A stretch of 58,949 nt of DNA, counting the filler, from Globobulimina sp. (lineage: Eukaryota): the NCBI GenBank assembly GCA_003354225.1. It is 8 parts of 8 records of this genome, joined end to end, with 100 filler letters (N's around TTAATTAATTAA, not from the genome) between each part and the next. Parts side by side here need not be neighbours in the genome. Positions count along the whole stretch, not along the records: positions 36,941 to 44,221 come from PIVH01000175.1; 7 more parts are not named here. One strand, written 5' to 3'. Below the pieces are notes generated by a model that saw only the letters and a list, made by a program, of their open reading frames with translations, searched no databases and was not told where the DNA came from. The position numbers and the translations under genes are program-made. Of this stretch, positions 1,978-44,221 are shown piece after piece (the first letter of the stretch is position 1; the number at the start of each line of letters is the position of its first letter).

Positions 1978-2487
1978 GGTCTGTCCTATTTTGTCAGGTG
2001 AGTCGTGTAAACAAGTTGCTTGTTTATAATCTTTTGTATGGCTTTGGGCTGCCTTGTTTACATCGACTTCATCACTATTTCTCTTGGAGTGGAGTGGTGT
2101 GTGATGTATTTTTCCTGTGTGTTGTTTGAATCTATTTAAGTTTTGAAATTGATTGTGTAGGAACCAAACATCACCAAATTCCTAAAAACACGATTGATTC
2201 ATATTCAGAGTTACAAATTCTCAGCAACAGTTTCTGATTATATCCAACATCAATCACCAATGTTAGATGAGCAAAGCGTTCCACCCTTTAGGAACATAGC
2301 TTTTAGCTCAAAATATCTATTCTACGGTGTCCACGAGACTGTTTTACTTGAGAAGTAACATTAAATCACAAAACGGCCAAAGTAGCACACTTTACACGGT
2401 AGTAAGCTGCTCTAATGGTCCAGTGATCTCCTTATCTGACCAATGCAAATCGTTGTGAACCAATTATAATTTTATACATAATTTCAG

Positions 2488-3530
2488 ATTCAGATGAGAG
2501 TGGAGATTCATCGTCGGACAAACCTAAAACAAAAACAAAAAAACATAAGAAATCCAGAAAACAAAGACGAGTCCACTCACAAACTGATCTACTTATGTTC
2601 ATATGGAGAACAAATGAGACACAAATGACTGATATTATGTTACATGTGCTTAAATATGGAGAGAAGTGCAAGAATTTCCGGAGAATAAGTCCGAGCACGA
2701 CCATACAAAATATTTTTACTGACAAATCCAATGTATATGCTTTCATCGATGAGGTGCAATTTATTATAAATGATTGGAAAATCCATATTGTGAGACATTC
2801 ATCCGACATTTTAACCCAATTAACACGTCTTTACAAACGTAAATCATTATCCATTGTACCATCGACAGAATTAAAACGTTATAATTTAATGTTAGAAGCA
2901 GCATCACATGATTGGACTGAATTTCGTGTGATTTTACAAACCATTGTGTTAAATCAAAAAATTGATCCCCAGTTATTCTATAAATTCCTAAATGAATCCA
3001 TGTCCTTAGCAATGGATAAACAAATAGCAATAACAGCGGCAATACGAGACAATCACCTTAGATCAAAATTAAATATTGAAGCAAATGAAGGTGTAGTTTC
3101 GGATCAAATGTGGTTACAAGAAATGTTTCCAAACTATAGTCATTCAGAACTCCTAAAGGCACAGAAACAGATTGCTGATCATAAAAATGCGACTGCAAAA
3201 GCAGCAGCACTCAGCAACCCATCACAACAGAAAATCCCCAAACAAACCAATAAATACACCAAGCAAAGTGGTGGAGGAATTACCCGAGACGCAAGGAAGT
3301 CGCGTACCGACGCATTGCATACATGGCAAAGGGAAATCAAATCAAGATTAAAACCTACGATCAAAGAAAACTTAGCAAATTATTGTGCACCTCATCATAT
3401 GCCAGAAATGACATGCAGATCATCAGGAAACATGTGCAATACTGGTGGCAGAAACAGATATCATGCCTGTTTATGCGGAGAATTAACACATACCATTCCA
3501 AATTGCAAAAAGATATTTCGCAATCAATGA
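2488..3530 (+). CDS. Gag-like protein with C-terminal Cys/His zinc knuckles
   Basis: C-terminus YCAPHH...TC...MC...YHACLCGELTHTIPNC resembles the CCCH+CCHC array of DIRS/Ngaro gag. Frame is open upstream of ATG 2595 to the acceptor tttcag at 2487. Confidence 0.8.
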
Positions 3531-3910: not shown

Positions 3911-3981
3911 ACCAAAATAGTGATTTTAATCGTCATTATTGTGATCATTAAATAAATCCTTGTTTATTTTCCTTTACACAG

Positions 3982-5717
3982 ATAATGTAATTCCGAATCT
4001 TCAATTACTTGATCATGAATGCTCTGATCTACTCCAAGAATTAGTAGATTTATACTCCCATCCACCGCATATTCCACATCATTTTAATATACAACTTTTC
4101 CGTCATTATTTACAGGATCATCCTGATGGTGATATCCATATTAACTACATTGAAAATGGATACCCATTATTCTTGAAAGACAGAGATCCTTCCAATCTAT
4201 GCCAAAAAGTATCCAATATTGTAAGAAACAAAAAAGAATTAAAAGCCATTCTTTCCAGAATGGTCAAAGAAGCAAAGAAAGGATATATACAACCATCTGA
4301 TACCACACTTCATTACAACTTAAATTTATTATGTGTCCCAAAGCGCAATAATGATACACTCTTAATGACAGATATAAGAGTAGCCAGACATGGCTCATAT
4401 TGCACCAATCGCACAGTTGCAATAAATCAAAAAATAGAAAAAGATGCTTGTAAGATTCCAACTTTACCAAATATCCGAAAATACATTGAAATGCTTCAGA
4501 AATATGATTTTGTTACATTGCGTGATCTAAAAGATGCTTTCAGACAACTCCTCAATGCATTGGAAGACACAGATTTTATACAATATTGCTTATTTGGAAT
4601 GCGATTCCGTGACTTACGCATAGCGTATGGCATCGCCTCAGCAGCAGCAAATTGCCAGCAATTTGCTCAAATCTTGATTTGGATTCTTGAAAATAAATAC
4701 TTAAAACCACACCAAAGAAACCGAATTTTAGTCCATATTGATGACTTTTTATTAGCTGCAACGAGTGAGGCAGAAGCATTAGAATTAGCCTGTAAATTTG
4801 ACCAAATGTGTGATGATTTAGGTGTAAAAGTATCACACGCTAAAGATGAAAATGCCATTTTTGAAGGTGTTGTACATGGTTTTGGATTTAATCTAAAATC
4901 AAATGATGTTCACATACCTGAACATAAACTCAACGAGTTATTATATGGTATCTCATTAATAAAAACGTATCGATATGCAACAGGAGTTGCGCTGGAATCA
5001 ATTTGCGGTAAAATTATGCATTGGTCTCAATTCAGAAAACCAGCAAAAATTCTCTGCTACCGATTACTAAAATTAATCCATGACAAAATCCGTGCGAGTC
5101 CCAAATTGAAATATAAAATTTTTTGGGTACCAGACCCCATAATTCGTGACTTGACTTTTTGGGCTAAATATACTATTAACATGAAATCGGTGACAATGGA
5201 ATCAATTTTAAAACAACCATCAATTACAATTACTGGCGCAACAGATGCGAGCAGTGAAGGTGGTGGATTCATCATAGGCGAATTCTACGGTTCATATGAA
5301 TTCCGAAATGAATCTAATAAATTTGATATAAATCATCGTTTAATGTCCATCAATTATCAAGAAGCACATGCAGTAATTATGTTACTTTATAATTATCGTC
5401 ATATGCTATCGGGTCGTCAATTATTATTATATATAGATAATACTTCGGTGATGTATAGTATCTATAAATACTGGGCGGGAAGTCCGAGATTAATGGAATT
5501 CATCCAAGAAATAGTGCTTTTGATGTGTATATATTGTATTGATTTAAGAGTCGAATTCATTCCCTCTAAACTCAATGGATTGGCCGATTCATTATCGAGA
5601 TTTGATTGGGATAGATTCAACGATTTAGTACGGACCTTTAATCTTACAATTCAGTCAGAAGCGACTTGCTTAGAATATTACCCTTATCTACGACTATTAC
5701 GCGACCCAAATTTCTAA
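3982..5717 (+). CDS. Reverse transcriptase / RNase H (DIRS/Ngaro type)
   Basis: RT motifs DLKDAFRQ, YGIASAA, LVHIDDFLL. RNase H motifs TDASSEGGG, INYQEAHAV, YIDNTS, NGLADSLSR. Start placed at the acceptor at 3981. Confidence 0.95.
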
Positions 5718-5826
5718 TTTACAATACGACTTTATATTTGCTTCTGACTCAAGCCTTGTAATAAGAGTTTTTCACATTTTTCAAACTAAAATATCAAAAA
5801 ACCTTTTCTTCTTTGCCACCTTTCAG

Positions 5827-7091
5827 AGTTAACACGACACTCTTTTGAGCAATATGAAGCTACAAAAGCAGATATCGCAACCACCAAAATCATCCTCAGA
5901 GATTTATTTCGTTCACGTCGCATTACAACAAAAACGAATTATTGCTCTATTTTAAAAGATTGGTGGGGTTATAGTTTAGAATATGGAAACAACCCATTTA
6001 CAAAGAAAATAAATCCATCCTTCGCAGCATTATGGCAATATAACAGAAGCCTTCGATTAGGCTCTTGTAACTCACACAAAAATTGGTCAGCTGCCCTTAG
6101 TTGGTGGGTGAAATCAAATGGAGAGACACCAACATTTTATAAAAATGGATTTTATGAGACAGTACATAAAACAATGTTGAAATTATATATGAAATCAAGG
6201 AAATTAAGATTACCAATAAGAATACATTGGATCGTTAAGTACTTACGTCATTTAAATGTGACCCCAGAAACCTGGGAAACCGTCCCATTGGATAAGCTAA
6301 CTTTGAGTTATTTATATTTAATGGCATTTTTCACCATAAGCCGCCCAGGCGAGCTCCTATACACAAATAGCACAGAAAACGAGAAATGGGAGACAATCAC
6401 TACTGGTCTACGTTGGGGGGATATTACCCTTAAAAACACCAATAAACCATATACTAGACGTTATAAAAAGATCTTAATTCATTGGTACAAGAATCAGGAA
6501 TTTAGAAATGAACCGAAAGAGATATTTATGGCACCACCAATCTGTAATAGAGATAAATGTCATTGTAAACAATTGGATTTTTATGCAATGTTTTTGGTTT
6601 TGAAAAGGAGGAGAAACAAATTAGTAAACAATTTAAAATTGAGAGCTAGAATAAATCCAAGCAAATCATTATCAAAACAAATCAAAAATTTGGACATTAA
6701 ACCATCAAACTATATATTTGTTGGCACAAATGGTGCAGTTTGGAGACCTTCCAAATTGGCAGAAAATATGAAAAAATTTGTTCGAGTCATTGACATGGAC
6801 AAAAAATTTGCCTATGTACCTTATTCATTTCGGATTGGAGCTACATCTCTTTGCCATCAGCAAGGAATTGATCTATTAAAAGTGTTGCGATTTGTAGTAT
6901 GGTCTATAAAGAGTTTGCCTCACGTATCAAATCGATACATTATGTTTACGGAGAAACACCTAAGAATCCTACCTTTTGAAATGATACATGGCAGGAATAT
7001 TCCTGGCAAAGTTAATATTGATAAAAGTAGTAATTTTTTAAAAGTATTCAATATTTGGGAAGGGCAATTATGCGAAACTTTATTCAATTAA
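5827..7091 (+). CDS. Tyrosine recombinase (YR)
   Basis: FFTISRPGELL (first Arg), YSFRIGATS (H/Y-x-x-R), VVW...SNRY (Trp, catalytic Tyr). Frame is open from 5790 and includes an N-terminal core-binding-like segment (TTKTNYCSILKDWWGY) upstream of the GTG at 6108. Confidence 0.92.
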
Positions 7092-14782: not shown

Positions 14783-15010
14783 ATTAGTAACACTTGGTAT
14801 TTTATGTATGAATGTTGAGAATAAGTTAGATCTAAAAAAAAAAATATAAAATTGGAAACGATAATGAGTGCAATGTGGTGTGGGAAATAATTGAAAAGAA
14901 ACCGGTTATATATGAAACCGGTTATTAAATGTTTTTTTTTTAATTTTATTTTATAAGTTTTCTGAAGTTCAGAATAAGTTTTTTAGACTGTACATGTTCA
15001 GAAAAGCACA

Positions 15011-18000
15011 ATGGACTGTTCAAGCCGTAAACAAAAGAAAACCCCACGCGAATACCAAAGAAAATCGTATGAAGCCACCAAAAGCTGCAATACAATCATT
15101 AGTTTAGATACAGGTTTAGGAAAGACACTGATCGCATGTTTATTGATAGAAAACGAATTAAAATCGATGGGTATGAACTCGAATGATGGATTAAATAAAC
15201 TGATAATCTTCTTAGCGCCGCAGGTGCCATTGGTGGAGCAACAAGCTCGCGTCATCGCACACGAAGTGCCTGCCTCAATCGTGCGTAAATTGCACGGCCA
15301 AATGCATTTGTCGCACAACGACTGGTCGGCCTACGAATGGCACCAATATCTGAGCAAAGGCGGCAACGTATTCGTAATGACACCCTCCATATTCAATAAT
15401 ATGTTGATTCACGGTCACATTCGCATGAAGCATGTCAGTTTGATAATATTTGACGAATGCCACCATATAAGCAGCAGAGACGAGTACCGACTGATTATGG
15501 AATATCATTATAACCGATGCCTTCCCATACATCAACGACCGAAAATATTTGGTATGTCTGCGCCACTCATTAAAGGCACCAGCAATGTCCACAAAATCAA
15601 GCATAAAATCAATGAGTTGTCGCTTGTATTAAATTGCAATGTGTTCAGTCCCAAAAGCAAGGATATCAGCCACCATTTGGTGTCGCCAGAGGTGGAATAT
15701 ATTACTTATCCTTCGTACGACATTGATCCCTCTCGTTTTGAATATGTATGGCCGTCAGATCCTGGCTTAAATGAGGAGCGATGGGAAAAGGAACAGGATC
15801 ATTTCTACCGAGTATTGGATGAATTGGGCGAAAGAGCTGCCGTCATTGCTTTGGATATATTCATTAAAACGGATGAAAAGAATACATATTTACACAGCTT
15901 TCCAATGGAGAAAATCATTCACGACCAATTATTGAAGAAAGAGTATCAAATTAATTTGGATTATCAAAATAAAAAGAAAATATTGAAAAAGAATTGGTAT
16001 TATTTCAAAAAGAAATATATGAAAAAGGATATCAACAAACAGCAATTGACAGTGTATAATGATGAGTTAGCTCTGAATAAACCTATTAATTTGCAGCCAT
16101 TGTTTGGCGAATTGGAACATAATGAAAATAAAGCAAGCAATCAACAGCAAAAACCATCACATTTAATATCAGCTGAAAAACCAAAATATTCTGAATTGAA
16201 AAGCATGCAGAAAAGCAGCAAAAGTAAAATAAAAAGTTTTGTTATATTTTTGCTTTTTTGCTTCTTTGTGTTGCAAGCTATGATATAATTAATTTAATTA
16301 AGGATTGAAATCGACCAAATCTAATCGTCAAAAATTACAAACTTGGATTGAAACATTAAATAATAGCAATGCAATGGAATCTGAATTGAGATATTTTAGT
16401 TTGTCGCCAAAATGCATTGCTGTATTCAATATATTGTATAATGAGATTGACCGAGTCGGAAAGGCTGAGTTTAAGACTTTAATACTCGTTCAAAGGCGCA
16501 AAGTGGCGCAGATATTAAGTATTTTGATCAATCAGTCACCGTTACCCATCAGCTCTGATTTTTTAATCTCTTCCATCTGCAAAGGTGGGGCCATGAACGC
16601 AAAGATAAGCTCTCCGCAGCAAAAGGACAGATTGTGCAGGTTTTATATGACAGAGAATGACAATTTGGACCGCATCGATGTGTTGGTAGCCACCTCATTG
16701 TTGGAGGAGGGCTTAGATGTTCCATCCTGTAAATTGGTGGTAAAATTCAATGAAACCATCTCATCCAAACAGGATATTCAATGCAAAGGGCGAGCCAGAC
16801 ACAGTAATTCGAGATATATCCATCTGATACATGAGGATGATGAATATCGACAGACTCAAAAGTTAAAAAAATATAAAAAGTTCCAAGAAAATGTAGAACA
16901 GCAAATCAGCGAAAAGAAAAGTAACAATTTATTTGATAAGACTCAAAATGCAGTTGTTTTAGATCCGAATGTGTATGATCGAGGTTTGTACATTGCAGCA
17001 ACGCAAGCTTTCATATTTGAAAAAGTAGCATTGCTCAAATTGCATGAGATATATAATCGGCATGATTTTGAATTAAATTGTGAGCTTCCTTGGGAATCGT
17101 TTGCTGAATCTCCATTTAGTAAAAATAATTTTGAACAGCTTATATTTTGCGGCATTTGTGGAGTGTGGAAAGTAGATAAATTTACCTATGATAATAGAAT
17201 GGATACTGATGATGGGAAATGCCGGTTAATTATTAAAAGAATCAAGGATTCGGATCAAAGTATGGAGGGAATATTCTTTGTCACAAATGAGAAATACGAA
17301 GAGCAATATAAACGGTATAAAATATGCAAACGACAACGAAGAAAGAATGACAATGAACGTGTTGTATTGCCAGCATTGCCTGATAAATTTGGCGAAATCC
17401 ATCTAAAATATAAGACTGCCAACAAAATGGAGATTAAATTTATTGAAAAGAATGAGAATAATGTGATACATTCGGGCGTGATCTCAGAGGATCGGAATGG
17501 TATTCTTATCGATGATATTGTGTCATTGTCAAAGCTTGAAAGTGTGGATAAATTGAACCGTGATCCAAATGCATATGCTTGTACTTATAAATTGATATTA
17601 AAGTTAAGAGACATTCCACAAAGTTTTATAAATAATAGGACACAAAATGAGAGAGCAAAACGATGGGTGAATAATAAATTGGATATGGACAAAATATGTA
17701 ATGTGTTGGGTGTAGAAAGAGAATGTATTCAAAGTCATACTAAAATTATTAGTGATATGGCCGTGTCGTTTATGGTATGTTTATGGAGAAAAGCAAATAT
17801 TAATAATGATATTATAAATGATGGGGAATTAATAAAAACAAAGCAAATGTTATCCAGTTTACAAAATAAAATAAGTTCGGATCAATGTGATTGGAAAGAA
17901 ATGGATGTATTGTTTGTAAGTAATTTATTGGATCAATTTAAGGAAATATTTGGTGATGATGCCAAAATATATATAAATAAAACGGAAGCAAAGTTTTTAC

Positions 18001-21000
18001 ACATTGTAAGCTATAAATTGCCGCATTATCTTCGGAACAGAAAGCAAGAAAATGATATTCCAGTTTGGGTGAAACAGAAATGCAAAAATATAATGTTTGC
18101 TGATGATAAATATAAATATGAGATTTCCACATTTCAGGAATGTTTCCCAAGCAAAAGATCCATACTTTGTGAGTTTAATATTTCTGGACTGCGATTGGAA
18201 AAAAGTGAATTTGAGGATCGATTGGATTTATTACGACGAGAATTTATCAAAACATTCGGTTTTATCCATTTATATTTGCGCGGACAGTCAAATTGGAAAA
18301 AATCAAACAAACAAAAGCATGCCGCCTATAAATATGATAAGTTGTACCAACAATGCGTGACATTGCCAAAATTGAGTGAATTTTATCATCATTTGCCGCA
18401 AATAACTATCACCGGAGATATTCGATTCAATTTTAAATCATCGCGAGACAGCGTGGCATTTAAAGCCATAAAACATTTATATTGCCATGGCATATTAGAT
18501 GAGAATTTGCGAGTTGTTGGGAGACGGAAAGCACTGCGGCCAATGTCAATGATGGGCACAAATTGCTGTGTAATGGAGACCATATATCATAGCAATATTA
18601 AACCGTACGCATTCCAAGTATTTAAGGGAGGATCTTTGCAGTTTGTGGATCATTTACATTCCATTTCCTTCATAGATAATGATAATAAGACCGTTTTGTA
18701 TGGCTGGGGCTTATTATTAAGTCAACCCATTCGACAAAACATTGCCTTTTATATCTATCCCCGAGATATGAATTGGATCAATATTGACAGTGTGCAGTCG
18801 AATCAGTCAACAAAGAAATGGAAAGTTGAAATAAAATATGTCAAAGAATACGATCGGACCAAAGAATTTGATGCAATGCGCTTGTGCTATCACACAAATC
18901 TAATGAGTTTGTTGGGATATAATGACAGCATAAACTATAACTGCAGTGATAAAAATTGTGTGGTGGTGCCTTTGCGTGATAGGGATATCAATTTAAAACG
19001 AATGGAGAAGATTCTATTAAATCCATGGTCTGACTTTGTCAATGTTGACATTATGTTTTTATGGGGGAAAGAATTGACACTTTGTCTGGTAAACGAGCAT
19101 AAAAAGGAAATAATTTCGTTAATATCATCGCGTAACGGCAATGAGAGCAGAATCGAATTGATGGAAGAAATAGATTCATTGCCCTGTGTCACACCAAACG
19201 TGGCAGCAAAATGGAATATTGATAAGGAGACAAGAATTATTATGATTAAGTTTGTGAGCACAGTGAACCAAGAAAATGAGAAATATATTCCAATGAATCG
19301 AACTCGAACAACAACATGGAAGACGCAAGAAAATCAGAATGATAATTGCAAGAAACGTGTGTATAAAATGTCGAAAGCGGAAAGTGTACAACGTATTGGA
19401 TATTGTATCAAATTGAAAACTGAAAAATTGAAGAAAGTGTTGTCTTATTCAGGAAATGATTTGCGTTTTATGGTAAGTCATAGGGACGAAAATATGATAC
19501 AATCTCATAAATGGAAACAATTAAATCATATTATTGCAGACACAGAGACAGATGGTGACATATCGCAGTTTGTGGTGCGTAATGAATCGACAAACTCATA
19601 TTATACAGATTTACATCCAACAAATCTATGTTTAAAATCGCAAATTGGCGCTGGTTATTCGTATTTGGATTGCATCAAAAATAAAACAAATATAAATGAA
19701 TTGGAGCACAAAATGGATGAAAATGAATTGTTATATTCCGCGGCTGCGCTGCCATTACGCCCCAAAGATGCGACCATTAGACACCACATAAAATTAAAGC
19801 GACAGAAAGCAAAACGAGAGAGTGGATTGTTAATAGCACCGCAGCTCTGTCGTATTGTTCCAGTTTCAAAAAAAGAATTGTTTTTCTCTCGTTATTTGTG
19901 TTGCAGTTTGTGGAAGTTTGAGAAATTATTACTGCTCTCAGATTTTGCCTGTTTGTTGCAAGAATACATTGGCATTCAATATAATATTTATTTGCTATAT
20001 CAATGCTGTTCATTGCCGTCAACTGACATGATATTACATGCCGGTATTGGTCGGATATATTTCTTTGGGGATCAGATCATAAAATATTGTGCTTCGCTCG
20101 AAGCCTATTCGACGCGCAAAGAACTGAATGAAATGGAATTGACTCGTTTTGTGCATCATAGTGTGTCGAATAACAATTTATGTGATAAGACAAAGCAGCA
20201 TAAATATTTGGGATATTTAATAAGCAAAGAATTTGATGCCAGAAAATATGAAATTACAAATTTTTCATCCTGTGATGAAACCGATTATTATCGTGTTACA
20301 AGAAAATCCATTGCCGATATTGTCGAAGCTATGGTGGCGGCCACCTTTTATAATGATTTTATTTTCAATTCAAAAGCATTAAAACTGGACATTATCGATG
20401 AACCATTTGGCAAATTAAATTTTAATGACATGGCCATTGGTGATTGCAATGCAATGGGTCAATGCCGAGAATTTATTAATCATTTATTAGAATTTACATT
20501 TTATCAACAACCCGAATATCCCGTCATTGCTTTAGTTTTGTCGCAAGAAATTAAATTCACTGCGGATTGTGAATTGAAACAAATATTGGATACCTTGGAG
20601 AAAATAAAGGAATGTATGATGGAGGAAGAAGAAGAGGAAAATGAGTGTGATGAGTTTGTATGGACAGACAATGCGATTGAAATATTATTTCATTTAAATC
20701 TATGCCAACATAGCACCAGTAAGGAAGTGGAAGATGTAATATTTGAGATTCATCATAATTGCATATCGAAACAATGGGATATGGAAAATTTAAAATTGTT
20801 ATCACTTTTGAACAAAGTTAGAAAATGTATTAAAAAACAGGAACAGTTTAATTTAATGAATTTGAAACCAAAAAATGAGATTTATGATAAAAAGGTTTAT
20901 GAATTAGAATATTGCACAAATGGCCTGCAATCCATTGGGGAGCAAAAAGATGAAGAAAAGTATGAGGAAATGACGCAAATGAAAGCAAATCCAAATATAT

Positions 21001-21908
21001 TTATTCCGGCTTGTATAAGAAATAAGAAATTTGGATATGAATTATATGAAAATATCATTAATTTCTATAACAAACATTGTGTTTTATCTGACGATGAATC
21101 AACGAAATCATTATTGAAATGTGCAATCTATAAATGCATATCGCATTTATTTGTTTGCCAAACAGCAAAAGAGATAATATTTTATAGGAATAACTTTGAG
21201 ATTGGAGATGTTGAGCAAGTAATCAATAAATTGAATATCCTCTGTGCTGATGATGCATTTCCTGTGTTTTTATTGCGGGAAAGATATCGGAGCGAAGGAA
21301 TTGAACTGATTTTAAAATATAAATTCAATCGAAAAGATTTAATATTTGCAGCAACCACACATTCCGCACTAAATATAAAAAAGAAGTCATTTTGCAATTA
21401 TCAAAGGTTAGAGTTTATTGGTGATGCCGCCATCGGTTTCTGTGTCACCCAATATTTATTCCAAACATTCATCAAATTTGAACAAGGCCGCTTATCGCAT
21501 TCGAGAGCCGCCCTGGTTTGCAATCATTATTTATCACGAAAACTGATGAGAAGATTTAAAAGATATAATTTGGACATTCAAAAATATGTAACTGTAATCT
21601 CAAGGGACAGAGCCGATTTATGTCAATATATTGGCAGTTTTGATTATGATATGGATGATTTTGAATTTTGTTTGAAGTTATTAACAGTGTCAAAAATGAA
21701 ACAGCCATATTGTGCTAAAATATTTGCAGATGTTTATGAAGCATTGGTTGGGGCCATTTTAATTGACACAAATGGTAATTTACAAAGTGTTTGGAATGTA
21801 ATTGGAAATGATTTCAAATTGAATGAATCGCAAATCCATCTCATCAATAAAAAATATGCAGAATCACAAATGATACAGGACCAACTTTCAAGACTTATAA
21901 ATAAATAA
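15011..21908 (+). CDS. Dicer-like protein (DExH helicase, DUF283, PAZ-like, two RNase III domains); exons 15011-16223, 16303-21908 (~2272 aa)
   Basis: LDTGLGKT, FDECHH, TSLLEEGLDVPSC, QCKGRAR; DUF283-like SVAFKAIKHLYCHGILDENL; RNase IIIa GRIYFFGD..ADIVEA; RNase IIIb QRLEFIGD..ADVYEALVGAILID. A phase-1 intron 16224-16302 joins the two ORFs. Confidence 0.93.
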
Positions 21909-36940: not shown

Positions 36941-37190
36941 AGTACACCTTTTCTGCTCCATTGATCCACTGATCCCTGATCCAGCGGCCTACCACCATAT
37001 TTTATACTACCTACCTAATTATCAACTGATCCACTGATCCACTGATCCACTGATCCAATAATCATATCAAAGCCTCACAAGATCAGTACACCTTTTCTGC
37101 TCCATTGATCCACTGATCCTGATCCAGCGCCTACCTTATACTACCTACCTAATTATCAACTGATCCACCGATCCACTGATCCACAGAAAC
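36941..37190. repeat. ~144-bp tandem repeat containing 8-bp CTGATCCA subrepeats (subterminal-repeat-like)
   Basis: agtacaccttttctgctccattgatccactgatcc starts at both 36941 and 37085; runs of (ctgatcca)n lie inside each unit. Confidence 0.9.
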
Positions 37191-37278
37191 ATTGGTAGGA
37201 TAGACTGAGATTTTTAAAATATATTTATTTTGGATCCTTGCACAGAAACAGTGGTAGGATCCTTGCACTTTGTTCGTC

Positions 37279-37515
37279 TTATTTATCATTTTCTTTGTCT
37301 TTCAAATATTCCAACACTTTTAGTATTATGGGCGCCATTGTCCTTTGGCATTTTGGGCACAATCCCTTCCATCTAACTAATGTCTCAATCCTTTTTTTTT
37401 TTGCTTCTTTTTTTTTTCGAGGCCTAACCGTATTTAATTTCCATTTTCTCCATGCCTTTTTTTTAACTTTTCTCCAACTTTTACATGTTGCCATAGTTGT
37501 CTTTAATGGCGGCAT
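37279..37515 (-). CDS. Small, highly basic 78-aa protein with CxxC, divergent from the transposase
   Basis: ATG-initiated, K/R/W-rich, CPKC. Starts 166 bp from the transposase ATG on the opposite strand. Confidence 0.4.
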   Translation of the reverse strand: MPPLKTTMATCKSWRKVKKKAWRKWKLNTVRPRKKKEAKKKRIETLVRWKGLCPKCQRTMAPIILKVLEYLKDKENDK

Positions 37516-37681
37516 TCTGGCTTCCTAGTCCAATGGGCACTATTTTGGGTGCTCCGAGCAATGGGCCACCGATAGGGATGCAAGTCCAATACTAACTACA
37601 GTTCTGGGATCGTTTAATGTCTAATGCAACTGAAAAACTTTCCACTGATTCTAAAATCTTTCCAAATAAACATCAAACTCC

Positions 37682-40141
37682 ATGTCACGTCTCCTTTATC
37701 CCCTTTTAATTCAACGTCAGGGATTTCAAATCCTTCCTGTAAATCCAAACAATGAATATAAACATGATATTATTATTTTTGCGCAAAACAAATATTATTA
37801 CAATCAACAGAGGTATTCGAAAACCCGTCGATGTGACGTGATATATTATAAATGCTCTCACATCGGCTGTAATGAATATCTCACATTAAATACGTCCAAA
37901 AGCCAAATTTTATTTAAAATTCCCGCCCAAACCAGTTACGACGCCCGAGTTCTCGCAAAATCTGAATCTGCACATTACATCAATGATCGAGAAATCCATC
38001 CTCCGACATGGACCACGACTAAAGAGGCTAAACAATGGGGCTTACGGAAGTTAATTGAATTAACATCTATTTATGGGCACGTTAGTAAAGCATGGAAGCA
38101 ATTTGGACGACAATTTCCTGTCCGCAGTATGGTTTTTAACAAAATCAATCAAGTAAATACCATTTTATACTGTAAACGTGCCAAATATAAGCCATCTTTG
38201 CCAACTACAACAAAATTAGCGTTAGAATATGTACTCAATGACAAACACATTGAATCCCAAAATTATTGGGGTCGTCTCAAAATCCAACACAAGAACATGG
38301 CCACGGACCCAGACGTTGGACTTTTAGTTAACGTCGAAAAAGAAGAAGATATACAAGCTCAGATGAGTAATATGACCCACACCATCGCTTTATTAAAGAA
38401 ACGACATAAATATCTACAATATAAATTAAATCGAAAGACTGCACCGGAATACTATCATAGCACCATGATTTGGAATTCCAGTGTTGATGGTTCAATTATT
38501 ATTATCGGTTCATTTCATGGCGGACTCCGCTTAGTAACGCCCTTAAGCACTTGGTGGTCGGCTGGCACTGAGAGCACCCTCACCATGCGTGATGGTACAT
38601 GGTCTACACCATCCTTATCTCCAAATTCCAGTGAAAGACGACCGTGGAAGCAATTACTTCAAATCGGTCCAGTTATACATTCCCACGACATATTCTACAA
38701 ATCAAAGTTTTTTAATGCCTTTTTTGCACTACTACCAGGCAAAAATGAAGATGATTACAAGCTTACGGATGATTTAATTGAAGAAGGCTTTCAAAAGCGA
38801 AAGATCAACATCGATAAACACAAAAAATCCGTACTTAAAGACGTACAAAAAAGACATCCATTTGTACTAATTATTCATCCCGACGAGAAAAACGATGCTC
38901 CAATCTCTAAGTCCACATCCCAAATATCCCACATAACCGATTTTAAAAATGAGTCCCCAATGTATATGAATGTTGACTCTGAATCTATGAATGTTGACTC
39001 TGATCTAAATATTCACAATAACGATAGAATTTATATTCCTGACGGCGTTCATCTCGATTTCGAACAAGCTCCAATTAATGCATTAAAAGAAATTTCGACC
39101 GAACTTATGGTATTAGCGTGTTTTTTCCATTTTTGGCAGGCAAATATACGTAAATTGGGCAAATTGGGATTAAAAATCCCTTATGTAAAATATCAATCAC
39201 CCTTCCGAGTCGCCATTACATTACTCCTTCTAACAGCCTTTCTTCCCGAATTTCAAATAATACCCCAACTCGAATTACGTATCCAGGCCGTTTTACAGTC
39301 GGCACCGTATGGACATAAATTAGCTGTTAAAAGATATACTAAGTACTTTCGCGACACCTGGATTAAATTGTTTCCACCCGCCTTATGGACTATGTTTCTT
39401 CGTTGGAATCGTACTTCTGATTTATTGGAACGCGACAATCGTGAAATAAAAAAAAACATCGGCTCTACATCTTATTTCTACGATTATTTAGACTACTTTG
39501 TCAAAGTCGACGCCGATGAAACTGTTGCATATTCGAGATTAATCAAACATGGTTCAGACGTATTTCTTTTAAAAAGACCGGCCCAAAGAGAACGCGAGTC
39601 AGAATTATTTCAATGTATGCAGTCATATTACGAATCCGATTTTGAAGACCCCACCGCTTATGTTCTCCGAATTTCAGCCATCTATGCTAAACGACTCAGA
39701 GATCAGCATGAAATACTTTCGATTCTCGATGAATACAAATCCTGCGAACCTGCCCCGCCTATAAATCGCATCATAGCACCAGGAGTACGATATATTGCAG
39801 ACGCACTGCCTTTGCAAAATCTTCAGACAAACGTTAATAGTGAAATATATTGCATGGCCGTTTATACCTATCTTTTTGGGACCACAGAATGGAATGCTCT
39901 TAGCCCCACCAAAAGAAAAACTGTTCCCTCAGCTATATATCAAAATGCACAATTTTATCGAGGCCCTCTTTCCGGCCTTTTGTATGCACTTGTTGCCATA
40001 AAATTTAAGTCATGGATTTATTCATTTGTAGCATTTATCGAAGGGACAGAAGCCATTATCTTTACCTATGACAAAGTTAAATGGGAGTTAGTAGTACAAA
40101 TGGATAAGGCAATTACAGATGGACATATAAAAATTCTTTAA
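37682..40141 (+). CDS. MULE (Mutator-like) DDE transposase with N-terminal FLYWCH/WRKY-like Zn finger
   Basis: YYKCSHIGC; MRDGTW (D1); KQLLQI; FALLPGKNEDDY; LDFEQAPINA (D2); CFFHFWQA (CxxH); YFRDTWI; RTSDLLERDN (E). Confidence 0.92.
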   Translation: MSRLLYPLLIQRQGFQILPVNPNNEYKHDIIIFAQNKYYYNQQRYSKTRRCDVIYYKCSHIGCNEYLTLNTSKSQILFKIPAQTSYDARVLAKSESAHYINDREIHPPTWTTTKEAKQWGLRKLIELTSIYGHVSKAWKQFGRQFPVRSMVFNKINQVNTILYCKRAKYKPSLPTTTKLALEYVLNDKHIESQNYWGRLKIQHKNMATDPDVGLLVNVEKEEDIQAQMSNMTHTIALLKKRHKYLQYKLNRKTAPEYYHSTMIWNSSVDGSIIIIGSFHGGLRLVTPLSTWWSAGTESTLTMRDGTWSTPSLSPNSSERRPWKQLLQIGPVIHSHDIFYKSKFFNAFFALLPGKNEDDYKLTDDLIEEGFQKRKINIDKHKKSVLKDVQKRHPFVLIIHPDEKNDAPISKSTSQISHITDFKNESPMYMNVDSESMNVDSDLNIHNNDRIYIPDGVHLDFEQAPINALKEISTELMVLACFFHFWQANIRKLGKLGLKIPYVKYQSPFRVAITLLLLTAFLPEFQIIPQLELRIQAVLQSAPYGHKLAVKRYTKYFRDTWIKLFPPALWTMFLRWNRTSDLLERDNREIKKNIGSTSYFYDYLDYFVKVDADETVAYSRLIKHGSDVFLLKRPAQRERESELFQCMQSYYESDFEDPTAYVLRISAIYAKRLRDQHEILSILDEYKSCEPAPPINRIIAPGVRYIADALPLQNLQTNVNSEIYCMAVYTYLFGTTEWNALSPTKRKTVPSAIYQNAQFYRGPLSGLLYALVAIKFKSWIYSFVAFIEGTEAIIFTYDKVKWELVVQMDKAITDGHIKIL

Positions 40142-40432
40142 AGCTTTTTTTTAATATGACTTTCGCATAAACTCTATGGGTTTTTTTGTTCTATTTAATC
40201 TAGATTTATTTTTGATTTGTTTTTTTTTGCCTGGTGTTTTGTTTAAATTCTTTTTTCAAATCGTTATATATTTTTGTTTTTTACTTTTTCTAATTCCACC
40301 TAAACGTTCTTGTAGTCCGGTTTTTTGCTTCCCACATTTTTAAATTTTTTAACATTTTGTTAAAACAATCCTCTCACTACATCCTCTCACTCTCCACTTC
40401 TTTTAACTTTTAAACCCCAGATTTTAGCATCA

Positions 40433-43395
40433 ATGGCCTCTCACCTCCGCCGCCTTCAATCGACGACACCTAATTCTATTCAATTACTAGAATATAAAAA
40501 TGCTTTCCTTGAAGATTCCCACGAAAAGACAACAGATGATTTTAAAGACTGCCGATACCAAGTACCATTTAAAGGTCGAATTTTAATGGATTATACCGAG
40601 TCTGTCCTACAAACAACTAGTAAACATCAAATATGGGAGGTTAATGACCATATGTGCCTCTCTGCCCTTCGCGCCGTACAAGAAAATAGACCTGTCGATT
40701 ACCTTCAAAAAACCATTATGTGCCCATCGCAAATTCATTTATATGTTGACAAGGGTTATAAAATAATGACGGTTAAGCGAACATGGCTAGTAACATTGAA
40801 ACGCGAAAAAATAACTGAGCCTTTTATTGAAACACAGCGAGATTGTCTTTTAAATGGTTGGATCCGTTATATCACCGATGTTGTTGGCGCCGACTGCCGG
40901 AAAAAATATTACATTTTCACCGGTATTGATCCTCTCTCACACAAAATTATGTATGTCCCACTTATGGTTATGACAAATCCAAAGCAAGATAATATGGCTG
41001 CCGTTAAGTATATCTCAATATATCGCTCCTATCCATGCATGCTTTCAATTTTTTTTAGCGTTTTCATGCATTACAAGCCGGGTTTAATGAAATTGGTACA
41101 TGGATTAATTTTACCAATACTGGTCCACTTCGCGCGCAATGGTACACGCAGTATCTTGGACCTAGCCTCGAACGACCGAAATCCCCGACTCTAGAGGCCA
41201 CGAAGTCATTCGGGGCAGTATTTTCTCCTGTTCTTAACCGTCATGTTTATATCGATCCTATTGGAACTATTTGGTGTACGAAAGAACGAAAACATTTGAC
41301 AGCAATGACTTCCGGATTATGTATCATTCCTGACACATTTAATAAATTAAAAATCAATGCCAACAGTATAAAATCATTCCCCCGTATACCCACCATCGAT
41401 CAAATGTCCCAATTTGGAATTCCAATTCCCGGTCAATTAGGGATTGAGGCCATGGGCGAGTTAAGTTCTTTTTATCTCTAAGTCCACTGTAGTCTACAAA
41501 TATAATATTTTTACAGACGAAATTTCATAATCTCATTAATGGGTCCCTTGTCTATTATGCTATCAGTACCTAACAATTTACAATTCATTGTACTCAAAAC
41601 CGGAGGTACCCCATCCATTTTAATCGAAGGACCGCCAGGAACCGGGAAAAGTACCCAAAATCAAATAAAATGTCTTTTATATGGTACATCGCCAACAACG
41701 TCCATGTGCACTTTATATAATTGGTCGTCATCTGCGTTAACTACTATTTGCGATCTCTTACCAGGCATTAGTGTCAGGTATTTTTCTTTTATTTTAACAC
41801 AATCGTTTTGTACGTATGTTTATTGCTCAGTGCCGATGATGTCGATCATGATAAAATGTGTAGTTCGTCAAATGGCAAATCATCATTCTGGATGAATGCA
41901 TATTCCTGCTCGACCGATGTCACTATGGCAAACGGAGTTCGTAATGGTTCCACGGCTGTTACGAACGCCATATGTAACAATTCTGATGCTTGTGTCGATT
42001 GGTTATCACGTCCTGTTGTTGGCCGCGTCGAATTATTGCACTGGCTCAATCATGTCGACACATTATCAATTGCTGAAAGAGCACAGAGTTTAACTAAGTT
42101 ACAAGCTTATATCGACTCCTATGCAGCGCATTTACCTGATTTTTTGGTTGAGTTGGATTTCTCTAATTTTTCTGATTATTTAGAAGAAATTATTGAAATG
42201 CACGCAGCCTTTGCCGAACGTTCTACTTTGCCAGATATCATCCCATTTCGTTCCCTGTCATTTAAAGCAATTTTACTTATTGCAATCGATTACCTTTCCG
42301 AGAATGTCGTCATATTTGATCGCCAGGTTGCTCGTCGTGTTTTACCGCAATTATTTCAATATGGATATCAGGTATTTATGTCCGCCACACTTTGTTTCTA
42401 AGTCCACCTCCGATTATTTTTTTCAGAAAGTTGCAGTGCATCAATCGAAAGTACCGATAACGCCAATCCAGGCAGTCCAGCCCAGCACTCCCCTTAATAC
42501 ATCGGCACTAGTTACATCCGACGAAGAGATGCAAATTTATATCGAAGAATTCTTTCGCTTACTTCATCCCTGGTTTAATCATCAGATCGATGAGACGCTA
42601 TTAAGCTCCGATGACCTAGATTTGTGGCTCGATATCAAAAAGACCACTAGTTATTATAGTGATTTCGCACCCAATGCCAATAAAGATTTCGAAGATAAAT
42701 GCTATGGATTTATATCGAAGCATTTTGACTCATTAAGACATTTATCCAAGACATATGGCCGCAGTCTCATTGTCGATTATTCCCCAGAATTCTCATCAAG
42801 AAAAATTTTACAAGCTGCCCGCCATTTTGACTGGCTTGCACGTTGGCGATATAATTTTAAGACCGGTGATTTTAAAGGAAATACTGTCAAGCAATGGGGC
42901 AAGTATTGGATTTTTATTTCTGCTGCCAAATTAAACGCTGTTTTTCATCGATATGTGTCTCCTCAACCCTTCACTGCCGATGACGCTATGAAGCATTCTG
43001 GCATCACATGGAATTCGAATAGTCCTGCAACCACTACGCCTTCGGTCACTCCTAATACACAAAATTCCAATTCTCTCCAGCATGCCCTTTCACAAAGTTC
43101 CATTTCGCTCCAGCATGCCCTTTTGCAAAGTGCCTCCGAACAATCACAAATTTCGGATACGCAAAGTGCAGAAGAACATCATCAATCTATTTTGCTTCAG
43201 CATGTCCTTGTCAGCCAACAAGATGTCGACAATTTACAGTATGACGATCAGGCCATTTTGCTGCAAAATGATGCCGCACCCGCTATATCCGATGCAGAGA
43301 TGAATCACAATCGTAAAAGGAAACACTCCCTAACATCGGATTCTGATGCCGAGAACAAACCGCCACAATTGAAAAAACAAAAGTTAACAGAATAA
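40433..43395 (+). CDS. P-loop ATPase / SF3-helicase-like protein (~913 aa); exons 40433-41002, 41059-41459, 41517-41777, 41831-42371, 42427-43395
   Basis: Four 53-57-nt GT-AG introns give a stop-free frame with Walker A ILIEGPPGTGKST, Walker B ISVSADD and an NAICNN motif-C/sensor-like strand. The first donor position is approximate. Confidence 0.75.
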
Positions 43396-43690
43396 ACATT
43401 TTTTGTTGCATTTATGCTGGTTTTGTTTTTTACCAGGTGTTTTTTAACACTATTGAATTTTTTTTTTAGCATTTATGCTGGTTTTATTTTTTAGATGTTC
43501 CACCCCTTTGTTGACCTTTTTTTATTCTCATCAACGATAACATTTTTTGTTGCATTTATGCCGGTTTTGTTTTTTACCAGGTGTTTTTCAACACTATTTC
43601 TCAATTTTTTTTGGGCATTTATGCCGGTTTTGTTTTTTACCAGGTGTTTTTCAACACTATTTCTCAATTTTTTTTGGGCATTTATGCCTA
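43391..43690. repeat. 63-bp tandem repeats downstream of the ATPase gene
   Basis: gcatttatgccggttttgttttttaccaggtgtttttcaacactatttctcaattttttttgg-like unit, two near-perfect copies plus degenerate copies. Confidence 0.9.
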
Positions 43691-44025
43691 TACCTTTGAA
43701 TTTTTTTTGTTAAAATTCGCCAACGAGAACGACATTATTTTTTTTTGTGGGTTTTTTTTTATTAACTATTTAATATTGAGTTTGTTTTTTTTCGTGTTTA
43801 AACTTGTTTCGGTATTTCTTTTTTTTCATTCTCAATTTCTATCTTTACTTTTTCTAAGTCCACATCTTTTCACCAGTTCAAAACTTTCGCTCAACAACAT
43901 GCCTTTCGCACAAGCTAATATGATACAGACTATTGGCCACAAAAATAGTTTCAAGCAAATCCAAAAAAAAAAAAATGCAGTACGGGTACTTACTTACTTA
44001 CTTACTTACTTTTTCTTCTACCGAC

Positions 44026-44221
44026 ATGTTCAAAGCCGCCAGCCAGAAAAAAAAAGCAATGCATAAATCCAATATACCGCCAATGCCATTCCAGGCAAGC
44101 AGAGCCATCAGTAGATCTGCATCCGTTGTTACTCCGCAAACAGATGAACAGATGTTACTTTATATCTCAGAATTTTTCCGTTTATTTCATCCTTGGTTCA
44201 CTCACCAGATCGATGAAACGA
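44026..44221 (+). CDS. Paralogue of the ATPase exon-5 domain, 3'-truncated
   Basis: DEQMLLYISEFFRLFHPWFTHQIDET vs DEEMQIYIEEFFRLLHPWFNHQIDET encoded at ~42520-42597. Confidence 0.75.

Follow-up and report, generated by a model that had tools for sequence, protein, structure and literature searches.

A Mutator-superfamily transposase gene followed by a spliced AAA+ ATPase gene in a foraminifer: candidate parts of a two-gene DNA transposon

Eukaryotic DDE transposons are thought to need their transposase alone, at times together with a small DNA-binding helper. ATP-driven partners for target selection or DNA remodelling are a hallmark of the bacterial elements Mu, Tn7 and IS21; for IS256, a related bacterial transposase family, we know of no ATPase partner. 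Foraminiferal genomes are, to our knowledge, almost unexplored. Here we describe a locus from the foraminifer Globobulimina sp. (assembly GCA_003354225.1), found in a window of 58,949 bases, the whole stretch of DNA that was analysed. Two intact genes lie 291 bp apart on its + strand, the first encoding a Mutator-like transposase and the second a spliced ATPase of the AAA+ class. In the reading that we prefer, and hold at roughly even confidence, the contig that carries them is an internal piece of an autonomous two-gene DNA transposon of the Mutator superfamily.

The window consists of eight contigs, each of about 7.3 kb, joined by N44-TTAATTAATTAA-N44 spacers, and the gene pair is confined to exactly one of them (PIVH01000175.1, positions 36941–44221, 7,281 bp). 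Genes on either side of a spacer are therefore not neighbours, and the other contigs are uninformative on linkage.

Among described elements of the Mutator superfamily, MuDR (mudrA/mudrB), Mutyl (mutA/mutB) and Hiun (vanA/vanB/vanC) resemble this locus in combining a DDE transposase that carries a C-x2-H motif with at least one further gene. Their second genes are described, in the relevant part of a review of Mutator-like elements (MULEs), as being of unknown function, DNA-binding or anti-silencing (PMC6446971). The word “helicase” is absent from the text of that review, and the MULE passages of a second article mention neither an ATPase nor a helicase (PMC6431247). The locus differs from these elements in that its second gene encodes an AAA+ ATPase of 913 amino acids (aa) and has four introns, and in that the terminal inverted repeats (TIRs) and target-site duplications (TSDs, 8–11 bp) by which they are defined are not seen on the contig. 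In open-access papers and preprints, Repbase being outside the scope, we found no description of a MULE or any other eukaryotic DDE transposon with an AAA+ or superfamily 3 (SF3) partner; in the same kinds of source there was also none of foraminiferal Mutator elements or transposon families.

By analogy, the arrangement recalls the bacterial pairs MuA/MuB, TnsB/TnsC, TniA/TniB and IstA/IstB, in which the gene for a DDE transposase is likewise followed, immediately and on the same strand, by that for an AAA+ protein; the two genes of the Mu locus are arranged in this order. Like the second members of these pairs, the predicted protein would be an AAA+ type ATPase with extra DNA-facing domains. 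It differs from them in that, in profile comparison, only its Walker A region aligns with IstB (24 columns), TniB (30 columns) or MuB (17 columns, 5%). Helitrons (Pif1-type) and Replitrons (HUH Rep) are also mobile elements that encode their own nucleoside triphosphatase, and the term “superfamily 3 helicase” is used in the Replitron paper (PMC10288648). Both use HUH endonucleases, whereas the contig analysed here encodes a DDE transposase, and no HUH motif or match was found on it.

The transposase and ATPase genes

The upstream gene (37682–40141, + strand) is intronless, with an open reading frame (ORF) of 819 aa at 37682–40138 and its stop codon at 40139–40141. A word-based search of 5.8 billion proteins gave 5,104 candidates and four matches, namely P0001 (45% identity, 91% coverage), P0002 (38%), P0003 (29%) and P0004, a distant Anaeramoeba protein with a MULE domain. 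The predicted catalytic residues D304 (38591–38593), D459 (39056–39058) and E583 (39428–39430) are invariant in all four aligned members, that is, the window protein and P0001 to P0003, and so are C480 and H483 of the motif C480-F-F-H483. A C-x2-H shortly after the second Asp is a signature of the Mutator/MULE family. Three of the four family members matched the Pfam model MULE (PF10551), the best with an e-value of 4.8e-5; the window protein scored 12.8 bits (e-value 0.17), below the curated cut-off of 27.6. When the four-member profile was aligned by hhalign to the Anaeramoeba protein P0004, the match reached 97.6% (e-value 4.3e-12, 161 columns) and covered the stretch between the second Asp and the Glu, both of which were in register, as was the C-x2-H motif between them. 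The N-terminal region contains cysteines and may correspond to the FLYWCH/WRKY-type zinc finger of other MULEs, which it resembles; it gave no Pfam match. The identification as a Mutator-like transposase in the first-pass annotation, made from the sequence before these searches, is borne out: judged by its motifs, the 819-aa protein is a divergent Mutator-superfamily transposase with an intact frame and all catalytic residues present. Its coding sequence also holds an in-frame tandem repeat, a 21-bp unit present about twice in a variable acidic insert (38965–39007).

The ATPase gene starts with an ATG at 40433, 291 bp past the transposase stop and on the same strand, and has five exons encoding 913 aa, separated by four GT..AG introns of 53–57 nt (56, 57, 53 and 55 nt). 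Exon 1 (40433–41002) encodes residues 1–190, an N-terminal region without detectable relatives, and exon 2 (41059–41459) the region ahead of the ATPase core, which P0016 is the only relative to possess. Exon 3 (41517–41777) contains the Walker A motif GPPGTGKST at 41629–41655. Exon 4 (41831–42371) follows with Walker B (DDVDHD), the motif HG-x-R-x-G, the sensor-1/motif-C Asn (AICNN), the Arg finger and a post-core helical domain. Exon 5 (42427–43395) encodes a conserved C-terminal domain, a Gln/Ser-rich tail and a basic C-terminal motif (KKQK); within the tail, a 33-bp coding repeat runs in frame for about 2.2 copies (43058–43131).

The intron model was obtained by enumerating GT/AG combinations for the four gaps between the ORF fragments. 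Four combinations keep an open frame; they have introns 1–3 in common and differ at the junction of intron 4, for which the 913-aa model uses the acceptor with a long pyrimidine tract. The acidic motif ...SADDVDHD straddles the exon 3/4 junction, about 40 residues past Walker A, and is followed by the Asn-ended strands FWMN and AICNN. A transcriptome-derived homologue, P0005, is colinear over the exon 3/4 junction, and P0016 over the exon 2/3 junction. P0007, from a 3,237-nt ENA contig and 28% identical, has a 19-residue in-frame read-through insertion exactly at the position of intron 3, and ten shorter genomic fragments either start just ahead of Walker B or end just past exon 4, where the GT donor contributes a Val. 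Because the relatives' fragments and the P0007 insertion break exactly there, the predicted introns 3 and 4 are placed at old positions, conserved across the relatives. Intron 1 is predicted from its frame, GT..AG borders and size alone. The downstream ORF fragments, then, belong on this evidence to one spliced P-loop ATPase gene with an open frame over its four introns, as the first-pass annotation had proposed; the five-exon gene, the 819-aa ORF, the 291-bp gap and the nested tandem repeats which it had listed are all present on the contig.

The motif TTCTAAGTCCAC (one copy reading TTCTAATTCCAC) occurs inside introns 2 and 4 (41471–41487 and 42391–42407), about 20–30 nt ahead of the acceptor. 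It is found again upstream of the ATPase start codon (40280–40299) and upstream of a third ORF close to the right end of the contig (43844–43863), and every such copy is followed by a pyrimidine tract and AG. The copy ahead of the ATPase gene lies in the T-rich inter-gene spacer of 291 bp (40142–40432, + strand), where the intron-type motif reads TTCTAAKTCCAC; a weaker copy lies within the transposase ORF (38900–38916). The motif may be the branch-point signal of this organism, and the copies upstream of the ATPase start and of the third ORF hint at introns in 5′ untranslated regions.

The ATPase family and its position among AAA+ proteins

Relatives of the ATPase were identified by an exhaustive HMMER search with exon 4 of 1.84 billion representative proteins, which yielded 15 proteins at an e-value of at most 1e-3, 11 of these at 1e-10 or below. 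One of them, P0018, a 1,912-aa repeat protein whose match spans about 32 residues, was dropped from the family. The 14 relatives kept are 23–49% identical; P0005 comes from a Bolivina argentea transcriptome (49%) and P0015 from Nonionella stella, and the others lie on ENA/Logan contigs of 0.7–7 kb.

Throughout the family, Walker A has the form G-x2-S/G-x-GKST and is followed about 40 residues on by D/E-D-x-D-H, then by HG-x-R-x-G between motifs B and C, and by the Asn-ended strand AICN, with about 47 residues from Walker B to the Asn. Some 16 residues beyond this Asn comes an Arg, then a Trp that is invariant, and after it a helical domain about 110 residues long. Walker A, Walker B and the residues R275, N287, R303 and W309 (P0016 numbering) are nearly invariant. 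The C-terminal domain together with the basic C-terminus is common to the three longest relatives; the basic C-terminus, found in P0007, P0012 and P0015, is predicted to resemble a nuclear localisation signal.

Beyond these relatives, searches with the ATPase pieces and their relatives against Pfam, PHROGs and NCBIfam returned nothing but P-loop noise (e-values of at least 0.006). The Pfam model of DUF5906 (PF19263) matched none of 17 scanned rows, and DUF927 (PF06048) gave no Pfam match either, both at an e-value of up to 1. Comparison of the family profile with PDB sequences gave low-complexity and P-loop matches only. A word-based protein search with exon 5 at two length settings (“longer” and “near”) found no match, and a language-model search with exon 1 was uninformative (best score 0.83). 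With P0005, tblastn gave weak matches in phages, the best to a BCS1-like AAA protein (e-value 0.7), and none in plasmids. Judged from these comparisons, the second protein is the founder of an orphan AAA+ family in which the four nucleotide-site motifs are all present, namely Walker A, an acidic Walker B, the sensor-1/motif-C Asn and the Arg finger.

The first-pass annotation had likened the ATPase to SF3/DUF927-type helicases. Spacing of motifs A, B, B′, C (Asn) and Arg finger as seen here is typical of SF3, and the order and spacing of these motifs in the family are of the SF3 type. In a language-model search with P0005, the nearest entries were clusters of bacterial proteins of about 170–200 aa, some with DUF927 or DUF5906. 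The scores, 0.94 for DUF927 (13 matches in the set, with 18% of cluster members carrying DUF927) and 0.89 for DUF5906, provide a lead only.

We therefore compared the family core by hhalign with profiles of seven AAA+ clades. These were built from 11 sequences for phage D5/P4-type primase-helicases; from 24 of 25 loci for DUF5906 (24 bacterial sequences, one locus cut by a contig end being left out); from 26 of 30 for DUF927 (four incomplete loci left out); from 11 of 17 for IstB (six partial or broken loci left out); from seven sequences for DnaA; from 16 of 20 for FtsH-type AAA proteins (four left out for brevity); and from 14 of 15 for TniB (one incomplete locus left out). The match to DUF5906 was the best and longest of the seven (93.1%, score 54.2, 149 columns, e-value 3.1e-7), with Walker A, Walker B, the motif-C Asn and the Arg finger all in register. 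The phage D5-type profile followed (86.9%, score 48.9, 122 columns), then IstB (86.1%, score 46.7, 24 columns), FtsH (78.7%, score 42.7, 109 columns), TniB (65.5%, score 39.8, 30 columns), DUF927 (59.8%, score 41.1, 59 columns) and DnaA (1%, score 19.5, 17 columns). As controls, the phage template was reversed, which lowered the score from 48.9 (real template, 11 sequences) to 13.4, and was shuffled by column 40 times, with a highest score of 17.4.

Classical AAA+ proteins matched as well. In hhalign comparisons with single sequences, a BCS1-like AAA protein reached 94%, the T4 clamp loader gp44 76%, Dda 67% (P-loop only), P4 alpha 15–29% and MuB 5%; all four motifs were colinear in the gp44 alignment and the first three in that with FtsH. 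DUF5906 and FtsH, compared with each other, gave 93.8%, a score of 54.8 and 149 columns, the same level as DUF5906 against the new family. Two further results limit the placement. Without its Walker A part, the match to the phage profile falls to 16.6, which equals noise. In AlphaFold2 models of P0015 and P0016, each built from the family alignment, the core stayed unfolded (predicted local distance difference test, pLDDT, below 50 in both). Only the post-core helical domain was modelled confidently, and a fold search returned long-helix noise.

What the ATPase shares with D5/P4-type SF3 primase-helicases (DUF5906; phage P4 alpha) is a colinear series that begins with Walker A and, about 40 residues on, an acidic Walker B; an inserted segment and a strand ending in Asn come next, with the Arg finger some 16 residues beyond that strand. 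It differs from them in that the searches revealed neither a primase or D5_N-like region nor any C-terminal resemblance to P4, and in its eukaryotic host and spliced gene. By profile comparison, the protein represents a new AAA+ family, and the nearest of the seven clades tested is the D5/P4-type SF3 helicase, at a distance of the between-clade kind. The motif pattern and spacing noted in the first pass have thus held up, with the language-model and profile matches on the same side; SF3 membership is favoured but unproven, because the DUF5906 score only equals the level seen between different AAA+ clades.

Linkage, rival readings and a possible mechanism

In the searches of 5.8 and 1.84 billion proteins, both families were found solely in foraminiferal transcriptomes and short ENA/Logan contigs, and for each gene the nearest relative is a transcript from Bolivina argentea (P0001, 45%; P0005, 49%). 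Both also occur in close copies. The transposases P0003 and P0020, on contigs of 5,914 and 3,467 nt, are one residue apart, as are the ATPase exon-4 fragments P0013 and P0022, to which P0021 adds a third close copy (contigs of 7,067, 5,914 and 767 nt, respectively). The only size common to the three transposase and 17 ATPase contigs listed is 5,914 nt (P0003 and P0022); with 51 pairs and a size range of several thousand bases, the probability that two would agree exactly by chance is low, of the order of a few per cent.

Diverged copies are seen alongside the window contig as well. The third ORF, of which the contig end leaves only the start (44026–44221, + strand), is a paralogue of ATPase residues 591–648 (52% amino acid identity, e-value 8e-13; 79% DNA identity), and a second variant of this stretch with five differences is present in the same sequencing run. 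In that run, the only one found to contain the window contig, 52 contigs align with it, 30 of them at 99% identity or more, 12 at 95–99%, seven at 90–95% and three below 90%; the 22 contigs under 99% include variant pieces over the transposase, the ATPase and the third ORF. At the level of sequence, each family has a lineage-restricted distribution and is present in several near-identical copies. For linkage of the two genes the evidence is suggestive, and the composite transposon proposed in the first pass is a plausible idea, with indirect support, in the form of co-occurrence and of copies elsewhere, from a second, divergent lineage.

The two genes might instead be chance neighbours, a single-gene MULE beside a lineage-specific, multi-copy AAA+ family that belongs to the host or to another selfish element and has no role in transposition. 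This is at odds with the equally narrow distribution of the two families and their similar divergence from the Bolivina homologues, with the near-identical duplicates of both in another assembly, one copy of each on a contig of 5,914 nt, and with the tight spacing and common orientation. Other observations fit it well, and these weigh against a joint element. The transposase gene is intronless, whereas the ATPase gene has four introns whose positions are kept in relatives that are 25–30% identical, a contrast that suggests a separate and long history. The paralogous third ORF follows the ATPase gene as in a tandem gene family, and beside 16 distant metagenome MULE loci an ATPase relative was found in none. 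Comparison of the left flank, the spacer and the right flank revealed only poly-T/A as inverted repeats, and there are no TIRs or TSDs around the pair on the contig; they are not visible because the contig ends inside repeats, in a tandem array on the left and in the third ORF on the right, so that the limits of an element are out of view. The 5,914-nt match of P0003 and P0022 is circumstantial, and the depths in the sequencing run, read for this contig alone, give no copy number. Taking both sides together, we rate chance neighbourhood as rather unlikely.

Repeat arrays lie on both sides of the genes. At the left, the contig starts within nested tandem repeats (36941–37190, unstranded), a 144-bp unit present twice, each with four to five copies of the 8-mer CTGATCCA; at the right, an unstranded tandem array of four to five copies of a 61–63-bp unit (43395–43690) follows immediately 3′ of the ATPase stop codon. 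Summed contig depth is 272 (36941–37183) and 299 (43502–43744) over these ends, compared with 21–38 over the genes, an excess of about tenfold. Either the arrays are collapsed in the contigs, or they may be present at some ten times the copy number of the genes, which would be expected of the termini of non-autonomous derivatives.

Such 8-bp and 63-bp direct-repeat arrays would also suit an integrated replicon-type element, virus- or plasmid-like, in which an SF3 helicase, with a primase or origin-binding domain at its N-terminus, uses the iteron-like 8-mer arrays as binding sites and the MULE is nested or recruited. The best profile match, to D5/P4-type primase-helicases, the language-model matches to DUF927 and DUF5906, and the long N-terminal region ahead of the core and the separate C-terminal domain point the same way. 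The contig, however, has no capsid, polymerase, primase or integrase gene, and the N-terminal region of about 340 residues and the C-terminal domain show no similarity to P4 alpha, DUF5906 or DUF927 proteins. Among viral contigs, scanned with the transposase alignment, with exon 4 and with P0007, no relatives turned up, one spurious 45-residue match aside, and the SF3 membership on which this account builds is itself unproven. We consider it improbable.

Finally, both genes might be domesticated host genes that are no longer mobile. Their intact frames, the expression of homologues of both in foraminiferal transcriptomes and the conserved intron positions of the ATPase would agree with this; the near-identical copies of both on different contigs of another assembly, the diverged copies in the same run as the window and the repeats on both flanks would not. 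This explanation appears very improbable to us.

Under our preferred reading of a two-gene Mutator-superfamily transposon, we infer that both genes move together and that the ATPase has a part in the process. The DDE transposase would cut and join the ends of the element. The ATPase, putatively nuclear by virtue of its basic C-terminus, would assemble as a ring or filament on DNA and aid transposition through its use of ATP. One possible role is to open or remodel DNA at the element ends, as would fit an SF3-like enzyme; the 8-mer and 63-bp flanking arrays are candidate binding sites. Alternatively, it could choose and prepare target DNA and regulate the transposase, as MuB, TnsC and IstB do in bacteria. 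This second role would be analogous in gene order and enzyme class only, since no homology to MuB, TniB or IstB was found beyond the P-loop.

Other features of the window and significance

Between the left array and the transposase gene, a Lys/Arg-rich ORF of 81 codons lies on the − strand (37279–37524). This small basic ORF, reported in the first pass, exists, but it is probably spurious and not a gene: it lies opposite a T-rich stretch of low complexity, of which it is the complement, and it matches no family (best e-value 0.27).

The remaining contigs of the window carry long open frames of ordinary eukaryotic genes, among them H+-pyrophosphatase, sulfate permease, WD40, PX, PH and PPR proteins. 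On the first contig, a 590-aa open frame (3945–5714) matches the reverse transcriptase domain RVT_1 with an e-value of 1.3e-6, just below the cut-off, and long unannotated ORFs lie beside it (382–1974, 2427–3527 and 5790–7088); together these are probably a retroelement. Two neighbouring frames of 433 and 1,868 aa (14987–21905) are jointly Dicer-like, with a DEAD/ResIII helicase, Helicase_C and two RNase III domains. They have few or no introns, in contrast to the ATPase gene with its four packed introns.

Judged from its sequence, the locus would represent a MULE with a new type of accessory gene, and the ATPase itself is a new family within AAA+. More tentatively, and with somewhat less than even confidence, we suggest that it is the first eukaryotic family of cut-and-paste DDE transposons of the Mutator superfamily with its own AAA+/SF3-like ATPase, so far confined to Foraminifera, in which the ATPase founds a new AAA+ clade. 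It would be a eukaryotic counterpart of the two-component systems Mu, Tn7 and IS21, or a hybrid of a transposon and a helicase replicon. If this is true, the two-component design arose, or was kept, in eukaryotes too, and the locus would offer a testable system for what the ATPase adds, be it target choice, immunity, unwinding of the ends or replication. It would also contribute a new clade to the AAA+/SF3 tree and would rank with the earliest transposon families to be described in Foraminifera.

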